NCBI GenBank assembly: GCA_022822785.1
Contig: JAJEAL010000080.1
Span: 448-64,447, forward strand
Direction: 5' to 3'
DNA length: 64,000 bases
Source of the DNA: Candidatus Poribacteria bacterium
GTDB lineage: Bacteria; Poribacteria; WGA-4E; PCPOR2b
Numbering within the stretch: position 1 is the stretch's first letter; each line of letters opens with the position of its first letter. Positions 4,705 through 24,947 of this stretch are shown here, piece by piece. The notes below the pieces were generated by a model. The model was not told where the DNA came from, did no database searches, and saw only the letters and a list, made by a program, of their open reading frames with translations. The translations under genes and the position numbers were made by a program.

Positions 4705-5256
4705 TTGAAAAGCATGAAAGTAAAGCTACCGTTTGCAGGGGCCCAGATTGATTACATGCAAGAAAGTGACCTGCCGGAGGTGATGGAGATTGAACAGCGT
4801 TCATTCTCCAGTCCGTGGGCGGCAGCGTCGTTTCGTGAGGGATTGAGACAGAGGAACCATCATGTTTACTTTCTAGTCATTCGCCATCATCAAAATCCGA
4901 TTGGGTTTATTAATTTTTGGGTCGTAGAAGATGATGCCCACATTGCAAATTTTGCGGTCTCTCCCGACTATCGGAATCGAGGGGTCGGCAAATACCTATT
5001 TGCACAGTCACTTGCATATATCCAAAAACTGGGAGGCAATCGCGTCTTTTTGGAGGTGCGCGTGAGTAATATAGAAGCACAACATCTCTACAGACAGTTC
5101 GGGTTCAGAATTCTTTCTATCCGAGAAAAATACTATGTGGATAACCATGAAGATGCCTATGTTTTTCGGCTTTCCAATCTTAGAGCGATCGATTTGTGTA
5201 TCGATTCCGCATATCATGTAGATGCCGAGTCTAATACTGACTATAGTGAATTCTAA
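4705..5256 (+). CDS. rimI: GNAT N-acetyltransferase, RimI-like (ribosomal-protein-alanine acetyltransferase)
   Basis: IEQRSFSSPWAAASFREGL ... NFAVSPDYRNRGVGKYLF ... LEVRVSNIEAQHLYRQFGF. The true start may be the ATG near 4750. Confidence 0.7.
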   Translation: MKSMKVKLPFAGAQIDYMQESDLPEVMEIEQRSFSSPWAAASFREGLRQRNHHVYFLVIRHHQNPIGFINFWVVEDDAHIANFAVSPDYRNRGVGKYLFAQSLAYIQKLGGNRVFLEVRVSNIEAQHLYRQFGFRILSIREKYYVDNHEDAYVFRLSNLRAIDLCIDSAYHVDAESNTDYSEF

Positions 5257-5472
5257 AGATAAATAGACGCTTTCGCTCCCCATGTTTGGTAGGCGTTGTT
5301 TTCAACTGCGCCGGTGCAGAGCGTTCAATTAATTCTAAACTTTACTGTAAAAGAGGTCCCCAGTCAATTGGCTCAGCGATTTGTCAAGATTTGGAGCGCG
5401 GTAGCACTTGAAAAGTCGTATGAAGAATTACAATCAACCGTTTAACCGCTAATGGAAAGGAGTCACGATACG

Positions 5473-6372
5473 ATGAGTAAATGCTCTTCTTATGGTGTCA
5501 GGCTGCTGCTCGTGTTGCTGATTGTTGCTAGCTTGACGCCTTCCACAATGGCAGCCGAGCCCAACGGCTTAATCATCATGATAACTGATTTTGGTTTCAA
5601 AGATTTTTACGTCGGTGCAATGAAGGGGGCAATGTATAAGGTTTTTCCACAAGCGAGGATTGACGCGATTTCTCATGGGGTTTCCAAGTTTGATGTTAAG
5701 GAGGGCGCGTATACATTCGCTAAAGCCGCCGTAGAATTTCCGACGGGAACCGTCTTCGTCGGTGTTATCGATCCAGGGGTCGGCACACAACGCAAGCCTA
5801 TTGTGATGAAAACGAAGGATGGAAATTATTTTGTTGCGCCAGATAACGGGCTCTTAACATTGATTGGTGATACAATGGGGGTCGCAGAGGTGCGTGAAAT
5901 CACGAACCGCGCTGTCATGCGGCAGGATGTTCAGTCGAGCACGTTTCATGGCAGGGATATTTTTGGTCCAGCTGCCGCACATCTTGCCAAAGGAATTGCG
6001 TTTGAAAAGATCGGACCTGTTTTGAAGGAGTATGTCCGATTGCCAATTGCGTTTGCAAAGGTGGTTGATGGTGAAGTTGTCGGACAGATTGATGTGATCG
6101 ATGAATACGGAAATGCCATCACAAATATACGTCCGGATCTATTCCAAGAATTGGGGATACAGGTTGGTCAGACTATTGAGGTCGAGTTTGCCAACCAAAG
6201 TAAAATCCACTGCAAATATGTCAAGGCTTACGGCGATGTACCCGTCGGTGATTACGTTGGATTGTTTGGCAGCGGCGGCGTGTTTGAGGTAGCTATCAAC
6301 CAAGGCAATCTTGCCGAGGGATTAAAATTGGAAACTTCAGAGAAGTGTATTGTACGGAGCAGTTCAGACTAA
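5473..6372 (+). CDS. DUF62 family SAM hydroxide adenosyltransferase-like protein with a predicted Sec signal peptide
   Basis: IIMITDFGFKDFYVGAMKG ... VIDPGVGTQRKPIV ... HGRDIFGPAAAHL. The start is chosen at the ATG at 5473, preceded by aaaggag at 5455-5461. The N-terminus MSKCSSYGVRLLLVLLIVASLTPSTMA-AEP looks like a signal peptide. The ORF track starts at 5452. Confidence 0.75.
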   Translation: MSKCSSYGVRLLLVLLIVASLTPSTMAAEPNGLIIMITDFGFKDFYVGAMKGAMYKVFPQARIDAISHGVSKFDVKEGAYTFAKAAVEFPTGTVFVGVIDPGVGTQRKPIVMKTKDGNYFVAPDNGLLTLIGDTMGVAEVREITNRAVMRQDVQSSTFHGRDIFGPAAAHLAKGIAFEKIGPVLKEYVRLPIAFAKVVDGEVVGQIDVIDEYGNAITNIRPDLFQELGIQVGQTIEVEFANQSKIHCKYVKAYGDVPVGDYVGLFGSGGVFEVAINQGNLAEGLKLETSEKCIVRSSSD

Positions 6373-6386
6373 GATAGGGGGCAACG

Positions 6387-6755
6387 ATGAACCGTGTCTT
6401 AACAAGATTAGGCGTCATCGTCATCATTCTGACGGTTATGAGTTTCGCCTGGACGGCTATCAGCAATACTCGAATTCAGCCGGACGATATCGCTGCGATG
6501 TGGCTTTTTGATGAGGTTGACAAAGAGGTAACGAAAGATCTTTCTGGCAATTTACATCATGCGAAAGTAGTAAATAATCCAGAGTTGGTGGAGGGAAAAT
6601 TTGGCAACGCATTTGCCTTTGGAAAGGGCAAATATCTGGAAGTACCACATCATAGAAAGTTGCAGATCAAGACAGAAATAGAGAACCTATTATTTACAGT
6701 TTCCGCATCAGGCAAACTTGCAACCACTTGGGGTACCATCGAACACAGTTGGTAG
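6387..6755 (+). CDS. membrane-anchored LamG_3-like (concanavalin A-like) domain fragment, possibly a truncated gene or pseudogene
   Basis: An N-terminal TM segment is followed by MWLFDEVDKEVTKDLSGNLHHAKVVNNPELVEGKFGNAFAFGKGKYLEVP. This matches the first half of a LamG_3 jellyroll. The ORF stops after about 100 aa of a roughly 180-aa domain. Confidence 0.35.
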   Translation: MNRVLTRLGVIVIILTVMSFAWTAISNTRIQPDDIAAMWLFDEVDKEVTKDLSGNLHHAKVVNNPELVEGKFGNAFAFGKGKYLEVPHHRKLQIKTEIENLLFTVSASGKLATTWGTIEHSW

Positions 6756-6913
6756 GTCGTTCCGCGGTTCAGAAGGGGTTGCGGAGTTGATTACAGGTTT
6801 CCAATTGATTAGCATCTTGGAATTTGATATAATAGACAATATTATCGAACTCTTGACTTGTCAATTTCAAGCTTGGGGTGTAGTTTCCCCCGGTTTCTAA
6901 GGAGATTAAATTT

Positions 6914-7960
6914 ATGGCAAAAACATACCGAGTTGGAATTATTGGTTGCGGGGGAATGGGAAGATCGCACACCAATGCCTGGCCCACCACCGGTCGTGCG
7001 GAAGTGGTAACAGCGGCGGATATGAATCCAGATGCCGCAGCTAGCCTAGCGGCGGAATTTTCACTATCGACGCATTATACCGATGTCCATGAAATGTTTG
7101 AAAAAGAGACGCTGGACATCGTAAGCATTACAACGTGGCAGAGCGTGCGCGCTGAACTCACGTTGATTGCTGCAAACGCAGGAATGTCAGGGGTCCTTGG
7201 TGAGAAACCGATGAGTGCTTCTTACGGTGAAGCGCAGGACATGATGGCCGCTTGTGAGGAGAGTGGTACAAAACTCGTTATCGGACATCAGCGGCGCTTT
7301 ATGCCCCAGAATTGTGAAGCACGGCGACTCATTCAGGAGGGCGCAATCGGCGAACCGCAGGCGATGTTACGCCGTGATGGACTTGGCTTACTCAATCGGG
7401 GTACACACGAAATCGACGAAATGCGCTATCTTCTTGGCGATCCGGAACCGCTGTGGTTAATCGGGCAGGTCTCGCGGCGTACGGATAAGTGGGAACGCCG
7501 GGTCCGCTGTGAAGATGTTTGCATGGGCGAAATTTGCTTTGAAGGCGGTATTCGTGGCATTTACGAAAGTGATTTGCCGGAACCCGGTTTGCGTGGTGAT
7601 GCTGTCTATGGAAGCGATGGTCAACTTAGACGGGGGGCAGATGGGACAATAGAATTGCTTAACAGCAAGGTCGCCGGCTGGCAAACCATCACGCCGCGCC
7701 AGAGTGAACCCAATCAGTTTCAGGAAATGATTGCTTGGCTTGACGGAGAGATTGAGGAACATCGTAATGCAGGGAGACATGCTGCGACTACTATGGCTAT
7801 CCTGATGGCGATTTATGAATCTCTGCGGATTAAGGATGTTGTCGAGTTTCCGCTAACTACGCGCGCCAATCCTCTGGATTTGATGGTTGAAGGTGGTATG
7901 CTGCCTGTATTTGTAGAGGGCCGCTACGATATCCGGGCTCCATTTCCTGAACAGCAGTAG
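6914..7960 (+). CDS. Gfo/Idh/MocA family oxidoreductase
   Basis: YRVGIIGCGGMGRSH ... GEKPMS, 348 aa. The RBS ggagat precedes the ATG. Confidence 0.8.
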   Translation: MAKTYRVGIIGCGGMGRSHTNAWPTTGRAEVVTAADMNPDAAASLAAEFSLSTHYTDVHEMFEKETLDIVSITTWQSVRAELTLIAANAGMSGVLGEKPMSASYGEAQDMMAACEESGTKLVIGHQRRFMPQNCEARRLIQEGAIGEPQAMLRRDGLGLLNRGTHEIDEMRYLLGDPEPLWLIGQVSRRTDKWERRVRCEDVCMGEICFEGGIRGIYESDLPEPGLRGDAVYGSDGQLRRGADGTIELLNSKVAGWQTITPRQSEPNQFQEMIAWLDGEIEEHRNAGRHAATTMAILMAIYESLRIKDVVEFPLTTRANPLDLMVEGGMLPVFVEGRYDIRAPFPEQQ

Positions 7961-10830: not shown

Positions 10831-11940
10831 ATGAATTCCCAACCAACAACACTCCAAGACAATATAGATAATGCAGAGCTCAGCGTTGAAAGTGTAAAAA
10901 AAGAGCTTTATAAAAGAAACCATCCAAGTTTAATGCCAATCGACATAGAAGCTCACGCTGAGACAGTGTATCAGATACTGAAACTCAAGCAGAAACACAA
11001 TGTGGTGATACTCGGCCATAATTACATGGAACCCCTCGTATTTGGCTTATCAACGAAAAGTGAGCAGGGCGATTCACTTGGATTAAGCATGTATGCCGCA
11101 AAGACCGATGCGCCATATATCCTCTTCAATGGGGTACCGTTCATGGCAGAAACTGCCAAAATCCTCAATCCTTCAAAAACCGTTCTCGCTGCTGATAAAA
11201 CTGCAGGCTGCTCTTTGGCGGATAATTTTGGGGCTGAGGAGGTGAGGAAGTTGAAAGCACTTTATCCAGGGATGCCTGTCATGATTTATATCAATAGCTA
11301 CGCTGATGCGAAGGCGGAATCGGATATTTGTTGCACCTCCGCCAATGCCGCCCAAATTGCCCGAGAAATGCCGGGGGATGAGATTCTTTTTGTCCCCGAT
11401 ATTTTCTTCGCAGAGAATTTGGAGGAAGAACTTAAAGGGACGAAAACTGTTATCTATCCTGGGAAAGGAAACCAAGAGAGGGGCGCGGTGTGTGAGGTGC
11501 ATGAAAAATTCCTGCTCTCGGACCTTTTAGCAATACGTGAGTCGTTTGACATCCCTAAAGGTCACTCCAAGCGAATACTTTATGCACACTGGGAATGTCG
11601 GCCTGAGGTGCTTCAGGAAGCCGATTTTTATGGTAGCACCAGCCAGATTGGGCAGGACATCGCGAAAAGGGTAGAGGAAAATCGGCTAGAACGCGCTTTT
11701 GTCGCTTCAGAATGTGAGTTGACTTCCAACTTGGCCCAAGAGTTTCCGACTGTGCAATTCTCGACCGCTTGTTCTGTAAGGTGTTCACATATGGCGAAAG
11801 TCACGCTTAGTAAGGTGCTTAATGTCTTGCAGACACTAGATAAAGGTGACGACTTGAGCCCTCACGAGGTCACGCTTACGCCCGATATTATCGAACGCGC
11901 AAGAACACCAATTGAACGGATGCTCGAGATGAGCGCGTAG
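10831..11940 (+). CDS. nadA: quinolinate synthase NadA
   Basis: VVILGHNYMEP ... ETAKILNP ... CSLADNF ... YINSYADAKAESDICCTSANA, a three-repeat NadA fold. 369 aa. Confidence 0.85.
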   Translation: MNSQPTTLQDNIDNAELSVESVKKELYKRNHPSLMPIDIEAHAETVYQILKLKQKHNVVILGHNYMEPLVFGLSTKSEQGDSLGLSMYAAKTDAPYILFNGVPFMAETAKILNPSKTVLAADKTAGCSLADNFGAEEVRKLKALYPGMPVMIYINSYADAKAESDICCTSANAAQIAREMPGDEILFVPDIFFAENLEEELKGTKTVIYPGKGNQERGAVCEVHEKFLLSDLLAIRESFDIPKGHSKRILYAHWECRPEVLQEADFYGSTSQIGQDIAKRVEENRLERAFVASECELTSNLAQEFPTVQFSTACSVRCSHMAKVTLSKVLNVLQTLDKGDDLSPHEVTLTPDIIERARTPIERMLEMSA

Positions 11941-24146: not shown

Positions 24147-24947
24147 ATGGATTTAACACCAGCCCCTATTATCACACTGATGACCGATTTTGGGACAAGC
24201 GACCACTACGTCGGGGTCATGAAGGGTGTGATTCTAAAGATCAATCCGCAAGCTCAGGTTGTCGACATCACGCACGCTATTCCACCACAGGATATTAACG
24301 GTGCGGCGTTCCTGATTGATTCGGCATATAGCTACTTCCCGATGGGGACCATCCATGTGATAGTGGTAGACCCAGGGGTGGGCAGTAGCCGTCGTGCCCT
24401 CGTTTGCCAAACACGAACGGCTTACTTCGTCTGTCCAGACAATGGATTGCTAACCCATATCCTCCGTAATGAAGGATGGGCCCATACCGTGGCCGTGGAG
24501 AACTCCGCTTACGTTCTGCCGCGGGTGAGCAACACCTTTCACGGTCGGGACATCTTCGCCCCCGTCGCAGCACACCTTTCACGCGGCGTACCGATCGGCA
24601 CACTAGGAGACCCGGTTTCACAGCTCGTTCAACTCCCCCTCCCAAAACCTCAAGTGACGGAGAACACAATTGTTGGACAGGTCATTTGGATCGATTCCTT
24701 CGGCAATTTGGTCACAAATATTTCCCACAGAATATTGGGGGCGCTGGACGGACGAAACGATATTGTTGTCCGTGCGGGGAGCGCAGAGATCCATCGTCTC
24801 AACCGCTCGTACGCTGAATCGGCAGTCGGTGAGGCGTTAGCAATCATCGGCAGTTCTAATCGACTGGAAATCTCAATTAATCAAGGGGATGCAGCACAAA
24901 TCCTCGGACTGAAGCGCGGCGATACAATCACAATCTGTGCGACATAA
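24147..24947 (+). CDS. DUF62 family SAM hydroxide adenosyltransferase-like protein (cytoplasmic paralog)
   Basis: IITLMTDFGTSDHYVGVMKG ... VVDPGVGSSRRALV ... HGRDIFAPVAAHL. 266 aa, no signal peptide. Confidence 0.8.
   Translation: MDLTPAPIITLMTDFGTSDHYVGVMKGVILKINPQAQVVDITHAIPPQDINGAAFLIDSAYSYFPMGTIHVIVVDPGVGSSRRALVCQTRTAYFVCPDNGLLTHILRNEGWAHTVAVENSAYVLPRVSNTFHGRDIFAPVAAHLSRGVPIGTLGDPVSQLVQLPLPKPQVTENTIVGQVIWIDSFGNLVTNISHRILGALDGRNDIVVRAGSAEIHRLNRSYAESAVGEALAIIGSSNRLEISINQGDAAQILGLKRGDTITICAT

Follow-up and report, generated by a model that had tools for sequence, protein, structure and literature searches.

A predicted Sec-exported subfamily of DUF62 adenosyl-sulfonium hydrolase-like proteins in Candidatus Poribacteria and other lineages

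The members of the DUF62 family that have been characterized are all intracellular, and include the cytoplasmic (R)-S-adenosylmethionine (SAM) hydrolases PH0463 (2wr8, 1wu8), T. maritima 2zbu, MJ1651 (2f4n, 22uy), StDUF62, SaciSAMH and HvSAMH. Characterized DUF62 enzymes convert (R)-SAM to adenosine and methionine in the cytoplasm and cleave only the (R)-sulfonium epimer, and this cleavage has been interpreted as cytoplasmic metabolite repair (bioRxiv 10.1101/2025.08.29.672840). The physiological role of these enzymes has been questioned, and their role in repair in particular, because salt and cold removed most of the activity of StDUF62, which was greatly diminished at physiological NaCl/KCl and very low at 10 °C (PMC12120602). 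In PH0463 the residues D68, R75 and H127 form a water-activating triad, and the halide-binding residues of the related SAM-dependent halogenases are T80 and S158 in FlA and Y70 and G131 in SalL (PMC4859513). Here we describe a DUF62 gene located in a stretch of 64,000 nucleotides from a Candidatus Poribacteria bacterium (GenBank assembly GCA_022822785.1, contig JAJEAL010000080.1, positions 448 to 64,447 of the forward strand; this whole stretch is hereafter called the window, and coordinates are positions within it unless a locus is named). The product of this gene carries an N-terminal segment predicted to direct it out of the cytoplasm. The family, fold and chemistry are already known; what appears to be new is the localization predicted for the protein, together with the finding that exported members make up a coherent subfamily. 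Full-text literature searches on export of DUF62 proteins or SAM hydrolases found nothing relevant, and in the DUF62 papers searched for export-related terms, including PMC4859513 and PMC12120602, none of the occurrences related to the enzymes.

The window contains two DUF62 genes, at 5473 and 24147, as reported in the initial annotation, and both products have the SAM_HAT_N and SAM_HAT_C domains. The two copies are 38% identical and share the catalytic triad and the motifs of the family, which in the second copy read DPGVGSSRR and HGRDIF. The domains of this second copy begin at residue 9 and it therefore has no N-terminal extension; in a neighbor-joining (NJ) tree it groups with the short-N-terminus sequences, in keeping with its designation as cytoplasmic in the same annotation. 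The first copy (5473..6372(+), with the ATG at 5473 and the stop codon at 6370-6372) encodes 299 amino acids. It resembles the characterized cytoplasmic enzymes in both Pfam domains, in fold, in the Asp-Arg-His triad, and in the PDNGL and IDxxGN motifs. What sets it apart from them is a Sec signal of 27 residues, a 'PNG' motif at the mature N-terminus, and a position on the opposite side of the single tree branch that divides signal-bearing from short-N-terminus sequences. Its structure predicted with AlphaFold2 (AF2) had a predicted local distance difference test (pLDDT) score of 90, and the best Foldseek match was the T. maritima DUF62 protein 2zbu, with a template modeling (TM) score of 0.95 (normalized to 2zbu), a root-mean-square deviation of 1.5 Å and an E-value of 2e-35. 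Chlorinases (ClA1, SalL), PH0463 and fluorinases followed, and the 40 matches with E ≤ 0.001 were all DUF62 proteins or halogenases; identity to the structural relatives was 31-40% in the structural alignments. Enzymes of the DUF62 family are typically trimeric, and by analogy the exported enzyme would presumably assemble as a trimer as well.

The product of the first gene begins with MSKCSSYGVRLLLVLLIVASLTPSTMA followed by AEP, which the initial annotation had read as a textbook Sec signal peptide, and this description was upheld. The segment comprises an n-region (MSKCSSYGVR) with positive charges at K3 and R10, an uncharged h-region of 11 residues (LLLVLLIVASL) with a Kyte-Doolittle 10-residue mean of 3.29, and a c-region (TPSTMA) with P23 at -5, T25 at -3 and A27 at -1 relative to the signal peptidase I cut predicted after A27 (TMA↓AEP, the arrow marking the cut). 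On inspection, the features expected of a Sec/signal peptidase I substrate were all present, namely a positive n-region, an h-region of 7-15 residues, and small uncharged residues at -3 and -1, and about 80 orthologs share a cleavage region of the form ...TP.TMG↓AQT. In the AF2 model residues 5-20 form an isolated helix and residues 21-32 a linker, both outside the globular fold, which starts at residue 33. Neither a twin-arginine motif (S/T-R-R-x-F-L-K) nor a lipobox (L-x-[GAS]-C) was found in the protein or in its Poribacteria orthologs. Homologs at 43-63% identity have N-termini that are unrelated in sequence yet signal-like, typically of the form ...AxA↓APNG. Judged by this conservation, the N-terminal segment is a Sec/signal peptidase I signal peptide, and the protein would be expected to be exported and cleaved after A27. 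Lipoboxes occur in a related subclade, for example in P0098 (LLAAC) and P0094 (LFSC). The database start of P0094 (locus L020, 4352..6061 / 6001..6945) overlaps an upstream DDAH/ADI-family gene by 61 nt; translation probably begins instead at an internal Met (MKNKTLGMILFVLYLLLFSCGS), from which the N-terminus reads as a clean lipoprotein signal.

The extension that carries this signal is, by its pattern of conservation, genuine coding sequence. The open reading frame (ORF) called mechanically is 306 amino acids long owing to an in-frame ATG at 5452, which has no Shine-Dalgarno (SD) sequence and is not conserved in an alignment of the Poribacteria loci. The SD sequence aaaggag noted in the initial annotation is indeed present ahead of the ATG at 5473 (Table 1). 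The start ATG together with its SD was conserved in 18 of 18 Poribacteria species or loci, where a purine-rich SD-like motif (GAAAGGAG or a variant differing by 1-2 bases) was seen at equal spacing from the ATG. No indels and no stop codons were seen in the first 33 codons across these loci, and the mean pairwise difference was 0.58 in the upstream non-coding DNA versus 0.17-0.24 in the signal codons. At codon positions 1 and 2 the signal region was more variable than the mature part, and the frame stayed open. About 80 orthologs, 299-300 amino acids long and covering 100% of the query, came out of a database search; all of them begin with the consensus M(R/K)K.F.YGV(R/W/Q)LLL.FLIV.SLTP.TMG↓AQ(T/P)NGL, and a genome scan located orthologs in 18 Candidatus Poribacteria species.

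The export signal is also, in the sequences sampled, a trait of a whole subfamily and not a peculiarity of one gene. An exhaustive HMMER family search over 1.84 billion cluster representatives (50% identity) gave 10,530 family members; the 149 representatives listed comprised 54 with signal-like N-termini, 82 with short N-termini and 13 with other extensions. In the NJ tree, a distance-based tree of 191 sequences without bootstrap and with sampling by similarity to the exported query, the signal state changed 13 times, compared with about 64 times (minimum 54) when the labels were shuffled. A single branch of this tree placed 88 of 90 signal-bearing sequences on one side and all 82 full-length short-N-terminus sequences on the other. 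A second search, seeded with P0137, recovered 114 further homologs, 93 of them signal-like and with the very regular N-terminal pattern ...AxA↓APNG(L/M)V.LLTDYG; those bearing an organism name were all from Candidatus Hydrogenedentes. Signal-bearing homologs were found in Poribacteria, Hydrogenedentes and further lineages. Domain fusions agree with the predicted localization: the signal-bearing P0139 carries a C-terminal SecDF_P1_head fusion, the P1 head domain of SecDF being periplasmic, and other signal-bearing members carry C-terminal Emfourin (P0121, P0137 and, weakly, P0136) or Ig-like N_BRCA1_IG (P0122, 660 amino acids) domains, while P0143 (563 amino acids), a DUF62 protein with no signal, is fused to radical-SAM and wyosine-formation domains.

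A further signal-bearing protein, P0084/P0277 (403 amino acids, Candidatus Poribacteria, MCH8294326.1), seems to represent a third type of DUF62 in Poribacteria. Its identity to the query is 47%; it is about 100 amino acids longer, has a much lower SAM_HAT_N score (84 bits) and a divergent stretch directly after the TD motif (LITDYQSKNADKPP...), and is named 'SAM-dependent chlorinase/fluorinase' by NCBI.

The catalytic residues are intact in the exported protein. In HMMER alignments to solved structures, D100, R107 and H159 align with D68, R75 and H127 of PH0463, and the Asp-x6-Arg and His residues that had been picked out earlier in both copies are kept in both (DPGVGTQR and HGRDIF in the exported one). 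D100 and R107 were present in all 80 close Poribacteria-type orthologs and in 32 of 33 distant exported homologs, and H159 in 113 of 113 signal-bearing homologs. Both further motifs are present, PDNGL (residue 123) and IDEYGN (residue 209), the latter having Tyr where IDxxFGN has Phe. All residues conserved across the family were shared by the exported (n=90) and cytoplasmic (n=82) sequences, namely T38, D39, K51, D100, R107, P123-D-N-G126, S155, T157, F158, H159, G160, R161, D162, D210, G213, N214, N218, S267, E272 and N276. D39, the ribose-binding Asp of the TD(F/Y)G motif, is among those retained in the exported copy, and the C-terminal block formed by S267, E272 and N276 is what we take, from the SalL and FlA structures, to be the methionine-binding region. 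The two groups differ at position 65 (Asp in 99% of cytoplasmic and 44% of exported sequences, Ala in the window protein), position 95 (His in 57% and Phe in 40% of cytoplasmic sequences, Phe in 97% of exported ones), position 165 (Ala in cytoplasmic, Gly in exported) and position 212 (Phe in cytoplasmic, Tyr in exported). The exported sequences have a one-residue insertion near 152 that the cytoplasmic ones lack, and a 'PNG' motif before strand 1 that is specific to signal-bearing homologs and absent from the cytoplasmic ones. These differences are peripheral and none falls at a known catalytic residue.

Since the exported enzyme retains the complete catalytic machinery of its cytoplasmic counterparts, the same reaction is expected of it. 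We therefore favor, with a probability of roughly 0.6, an interpretation in which the protein is a Sec-exported hydrolase of adenosyl-sulfonium compounds and serves in salvage, recovering adenosine and methionine from exogenous SAM that may be epimerized; both the substrate and the salvage role are inferred. The 27-residue signal peptide would target the precursor to Sec, signal peptidase I would most likely cut after Ala27, and the mature enzyme of about 272 residues would fold beyond the cytoplasmic membrane, in the periplasm or further out. There, water or hydroxide would attack C5' of an adenosyl-sulfonium compound to give adenosine and a thioether (methionine in the case of SAM), and these products would then be available for uptake. 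The substrate may be exogenous SAM from lysed or host cells, probably including the sulfonium-epimerized (R,S) form, which would accumulate where SAM resynthesis is absent. The cytoplasmic paralog would deal with intracellular (R)-SAM.

Alternative explanations concern either the N-terminus or the chemistry. If the extension were an artefact of ORF annotation, translation would begin at Met26 and yield a cytoplasmic protein like the paralog; there is a Met codon at 5548, and a few database entries (P0074 and P0077, 274 amino acids) have been called from it. The initial annotation had allowed that orthologs might start at this downstream Met and have no signal peptide. This proved not to be so, because Met26 is replaced in L010 (ATC, Ile) and is Ile or Val in eleven listed orthologs, including P0028 and P0047. 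In addition, no SD precedes 5548, the upstream ATG and SD are kept in 18 of 18 species with the frame undisrupted, and distant homologs retain signal-like N-termini of unrelated sequence, all of which makes a start at Met26 very improbable. Alternatively, the hydrophobic segment could be an uncleaved signal-anchor that tethers the enzyme to the cytoplasmic membrane on its outer side, an arrangement suggested by the single helix (5-20) and subsequent flexible linker in the AF2 model and by those homologs that are lipoproteins, i.e., membrane-tethered. However, the core between R10 and T22/P23 is only 11 residues long and too short to cross a bilayer, a Pro that would break the helix comes next, with small residues at -3 and -1, and the AxA↓A pattern is very regular in the Hydrogenedentes relatives. 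We consider a signal-anchor unlikely.

With respect to chemistry, the protein could be a secreted SAM-dependent halogenase (a chlorinase or fluorinase) making 5'-halo-5'-deoxyadenosine, since it has in common with SalL, ClA1/ClA2 and FlA the fold, SN2 chemistry at C5' of SAM, and the PxNGL and IDxxGN motifs, and since NCBI names some relatives 'SAM-dependent chlorinase/fluorinase', although this is a generic product name. Unlike the SalL-type halogenases, it lacks Y70, the one halide residue that discriminates, which aligns with V98, and has the hydrolase triad instead, SalL Y130 aligning with H159; in addition, it scored 85.7 bits with the fluorinase model TIGR04507 against a cut-off of 400. 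These results bear out the earlier preference for a hydrolase-type over a halogenase-type member and leave the halogenase with almost no credibility. Of the comparison with FlA, SalL and PhDUF62 proposed in that annotation, the alignment covered the SalL Y70 position and the PH0463 triad. It is conceivable, if rather doubtful, that the protein is exported but has a physiological substrate other than SAM, or is mainly a binding protein. Candidate substrates would include 5'-halo-5'-deoxyadenosines, decarboxylated SAM, seleno- or other adenosyl-onium compounds, and an adenosyl-containing natural product. Such a role is suggested by scores below the NCBIfam equivalog cut-offs, by the subfamily-specific positions 65, 95, 165 and 212, the insertion near 152 and the 'PNG' mature N-terminus, and by doubt in the literature that (R)-SAM hydrolysis is the true function of all DUF62 enzymes (PMC12120602). 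It is opposed by the retention of all family-wide catalytic residues, including the S267/E272/N276 block, and by the fact that the differing positions include no known catalytic residue.

Several observations weigh against the interpretation as an exported, SAM-salvaging hydrolase. The protein fell below the cut-offs of both (R)-SAM hydrolase equivalog models (NF058624, 180.2 versus 350; NF053629, 165.1 versus 470), as did the cytoplasmic paralog (208 and 181). With scores this far under the cut-offs, the substrate may differ from that of the characterized enzymes, and both window copies are members of the DUF62 family and not demonstrated (R)-SAM hydrolase equivalogs. If the exported enzyme behaves like StDUF62, the sensitivity of the latter to salt and cold is hard to square with scavenging outside the cell in cool, saline surroundings, and literature searches on seawater or Poribacteria found no evidence of usable extracellular SAM pools. 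Our rule-based signal scan was crude. Among the 51 ORFs of the window it flagged 3, of which two resemble Rossmann-type dinucleotide-binding N-termini by sequence, one of these being a Pfam-confirmed GFO_IDH_MocA gene. The scan was thus poorly specific, and reliance was therefore placed on the comparative evidence. A conserved Cys pair, as might mark an oxidizing location, was sought in the signal-bearing homologs and none was found; C247 (77 of 80) and C292 (62 of 80) are common in the close Poribacteria-type orthologs, and hydrophobic residues occupy these positions in more distant homologs. A search for a conserved operon or conserved neighbors in nine distant loci found neighbors that differ in all of them, and the neighborhood says nothing on substrate or uptake. 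No SAM riboswitch or other Rfam element was detected upstream, in 5150-5560, at E ≤ 1.

Table 1. Coordinates of the exported-type DUF62 gene, its features and the cytoplasmic-type paralog in the window.
Feature	Position	Strand	Basis or remark
Shine-Dalgarno sequence AAAGGAG	5456..5462	+	Read directly; 10 nt 5' of the ATG
Start codon ATG	5473..5475	+	ATG in 19/19 aligned sequences
Predicted Sec-type signal peptide, residues 1-27	5473..5553	+	Sequence inspection; about 80 orthologs; AF2 model
Internal Met26 codon, alternative start, rejected	5548..5550	+	No preceding SD; not conserved
Predicted mature enzyme, residues 28-299 (AEPNGL...)	5554..6369	+	Fold from residue 33, domain model from residue 34
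SAM_HAT_N (PF01887), residues 34-181	5572..6015	+	Pfam E 1.2e-51; 174.7 bits versus cut-off 26.3
DPGVGTQR with catalytic D100 and R107	5770..5793	+	Aligns with PH0463 IDPGVGTERR
HGRDIF with H159, third triad residue	5947..5964	+	Aligns with PH0463 HGRDIF
SAM_HAT_C (PF20257), residues 204-290, including IDEYGN (209-214)	6082..6342	+	Pfam E 1.4e-20; 73.8 bits versus cut-off 25.5
Cytoplasmic-type DUF62 paralog, 266 amino acids, no signal	24147..24947	+	Both Pfam domains, beginning at residue 9

The gene order around the exported DUF62 gene is syntenic in Poribacteria and reads S15 peptidase, CNNM, GFO, GNAT, DUF62, Laminin_G_3, GFO, PPDK-like, and the gene at 10831..11940. Since the whole region is syntenic within Poribacteria it is uninformative with respect to an operon, and the synteny is confined to closely related Poribacteria. 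A promoter scan around the DUF62 gene gave weak consensus matches only, no terminator was found between its stop codon and the next ORF 15 nt downstream, and no Rfam family reached its gathering score within the 64-kb window. That next ORF, at 6387..6755(+), encodes 122 amino acids with a signal- or transmembrane-like N-terminus and no Pfam match. It is an in-frame deletion derivative in which about 156 central residues, and with them nearly the whole Laminin_G_3 (ConA-like lectin) domain, have been lost while both ends remain in frame. The counterpart at 6906..7751 in L001 is 281 amino acids long and has Laminin_G_3, and the same split tblastn match was seen in 16 of 17 other loci. Elsewhere in the window, the ORFs at approximately 30.9-40.7 kb resemble a dcw cluster by sequence alone (mur ligases, FtsW, MurG, FtsQ, FtsA and FtsZ).

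Some arrangements were seen in other lineages. In L026 (4913..5602) and L028 (5241..5936), which hold close homologs of the Hydrogenedentes-type clade (L026 carries P0340, from Candidatus Hydrogenedentes), an HhH-GPD (DNA glycosylase family) gene is located directly 3' of the exported DUF62 gene, with an overlap in L028; this adjacency may reflect lineage synteny or a functional link. In L019 (4877..7622), the exported DUF62 gene (P0118) overlaps an upstream GH88 gene and a downstream His_Phos_1 phosphatase gene by 4 nt at each end, which suggests translational coupling in that lineage only.

Periplasmic enzymes that scavenge cofactors and nucleotides include UshA, NadN, CpdB and gamma-glutamyltranspeptidase. 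Their folds and chemistry are unrelated to DUF62, and the likeness, offered as a hypothesis of role only, would be that an exported hydrolase splits an 'intracellular' metabolite into transportable pieces. The phage T3-type SAMase (SAM lyase) also destroys SAM, but it does so by lyase chemistry, in an intracellular anti-restriction role, and it belongs to a family unrelated to DUF62.

DUF62 proteins are currently viewed as cytoplasmic (R)-SAM repair enzymes or as enzymes with a real function yet to be established, and the relatives described here presently go by the names 'SAM-dependent chlorinase/fluorinase' or 'S-adenosylmethionine hydrolase', which make no reference to localization. We suggest, tentatively, that the signal-bearing DUF62 proteins may form a coherent extracytoplasmic branch that defines an undescribed route of SAM salvage or detoxification, especially of abiotically epimerized (R,S)-SAM; it is equally speculative that, as this proposal would have it, (R,S)-SAM could be used by no other enzyme. 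An intact active site in a large exported branch points either to the processing of adenosyl-sulfonium compounds outside the cell or to a substrate that nobody has sought, and either outcome would alter the annotation of the family. The mature domain offers a simple experimental handle, with SAM epimers and analogues as the compounds to be tried. If the proposed route exists, the debate over what DUF62 does physiologically could be addressed by tests outside the cell, and bacteria associated with detritus or hosts would encounter exogenous SAM as a genuine nutrient or hazard. An exported DUF62 enzyme would further the view that Poribacteria and Hydrogenedentes scavenge metabolites derived from cells.

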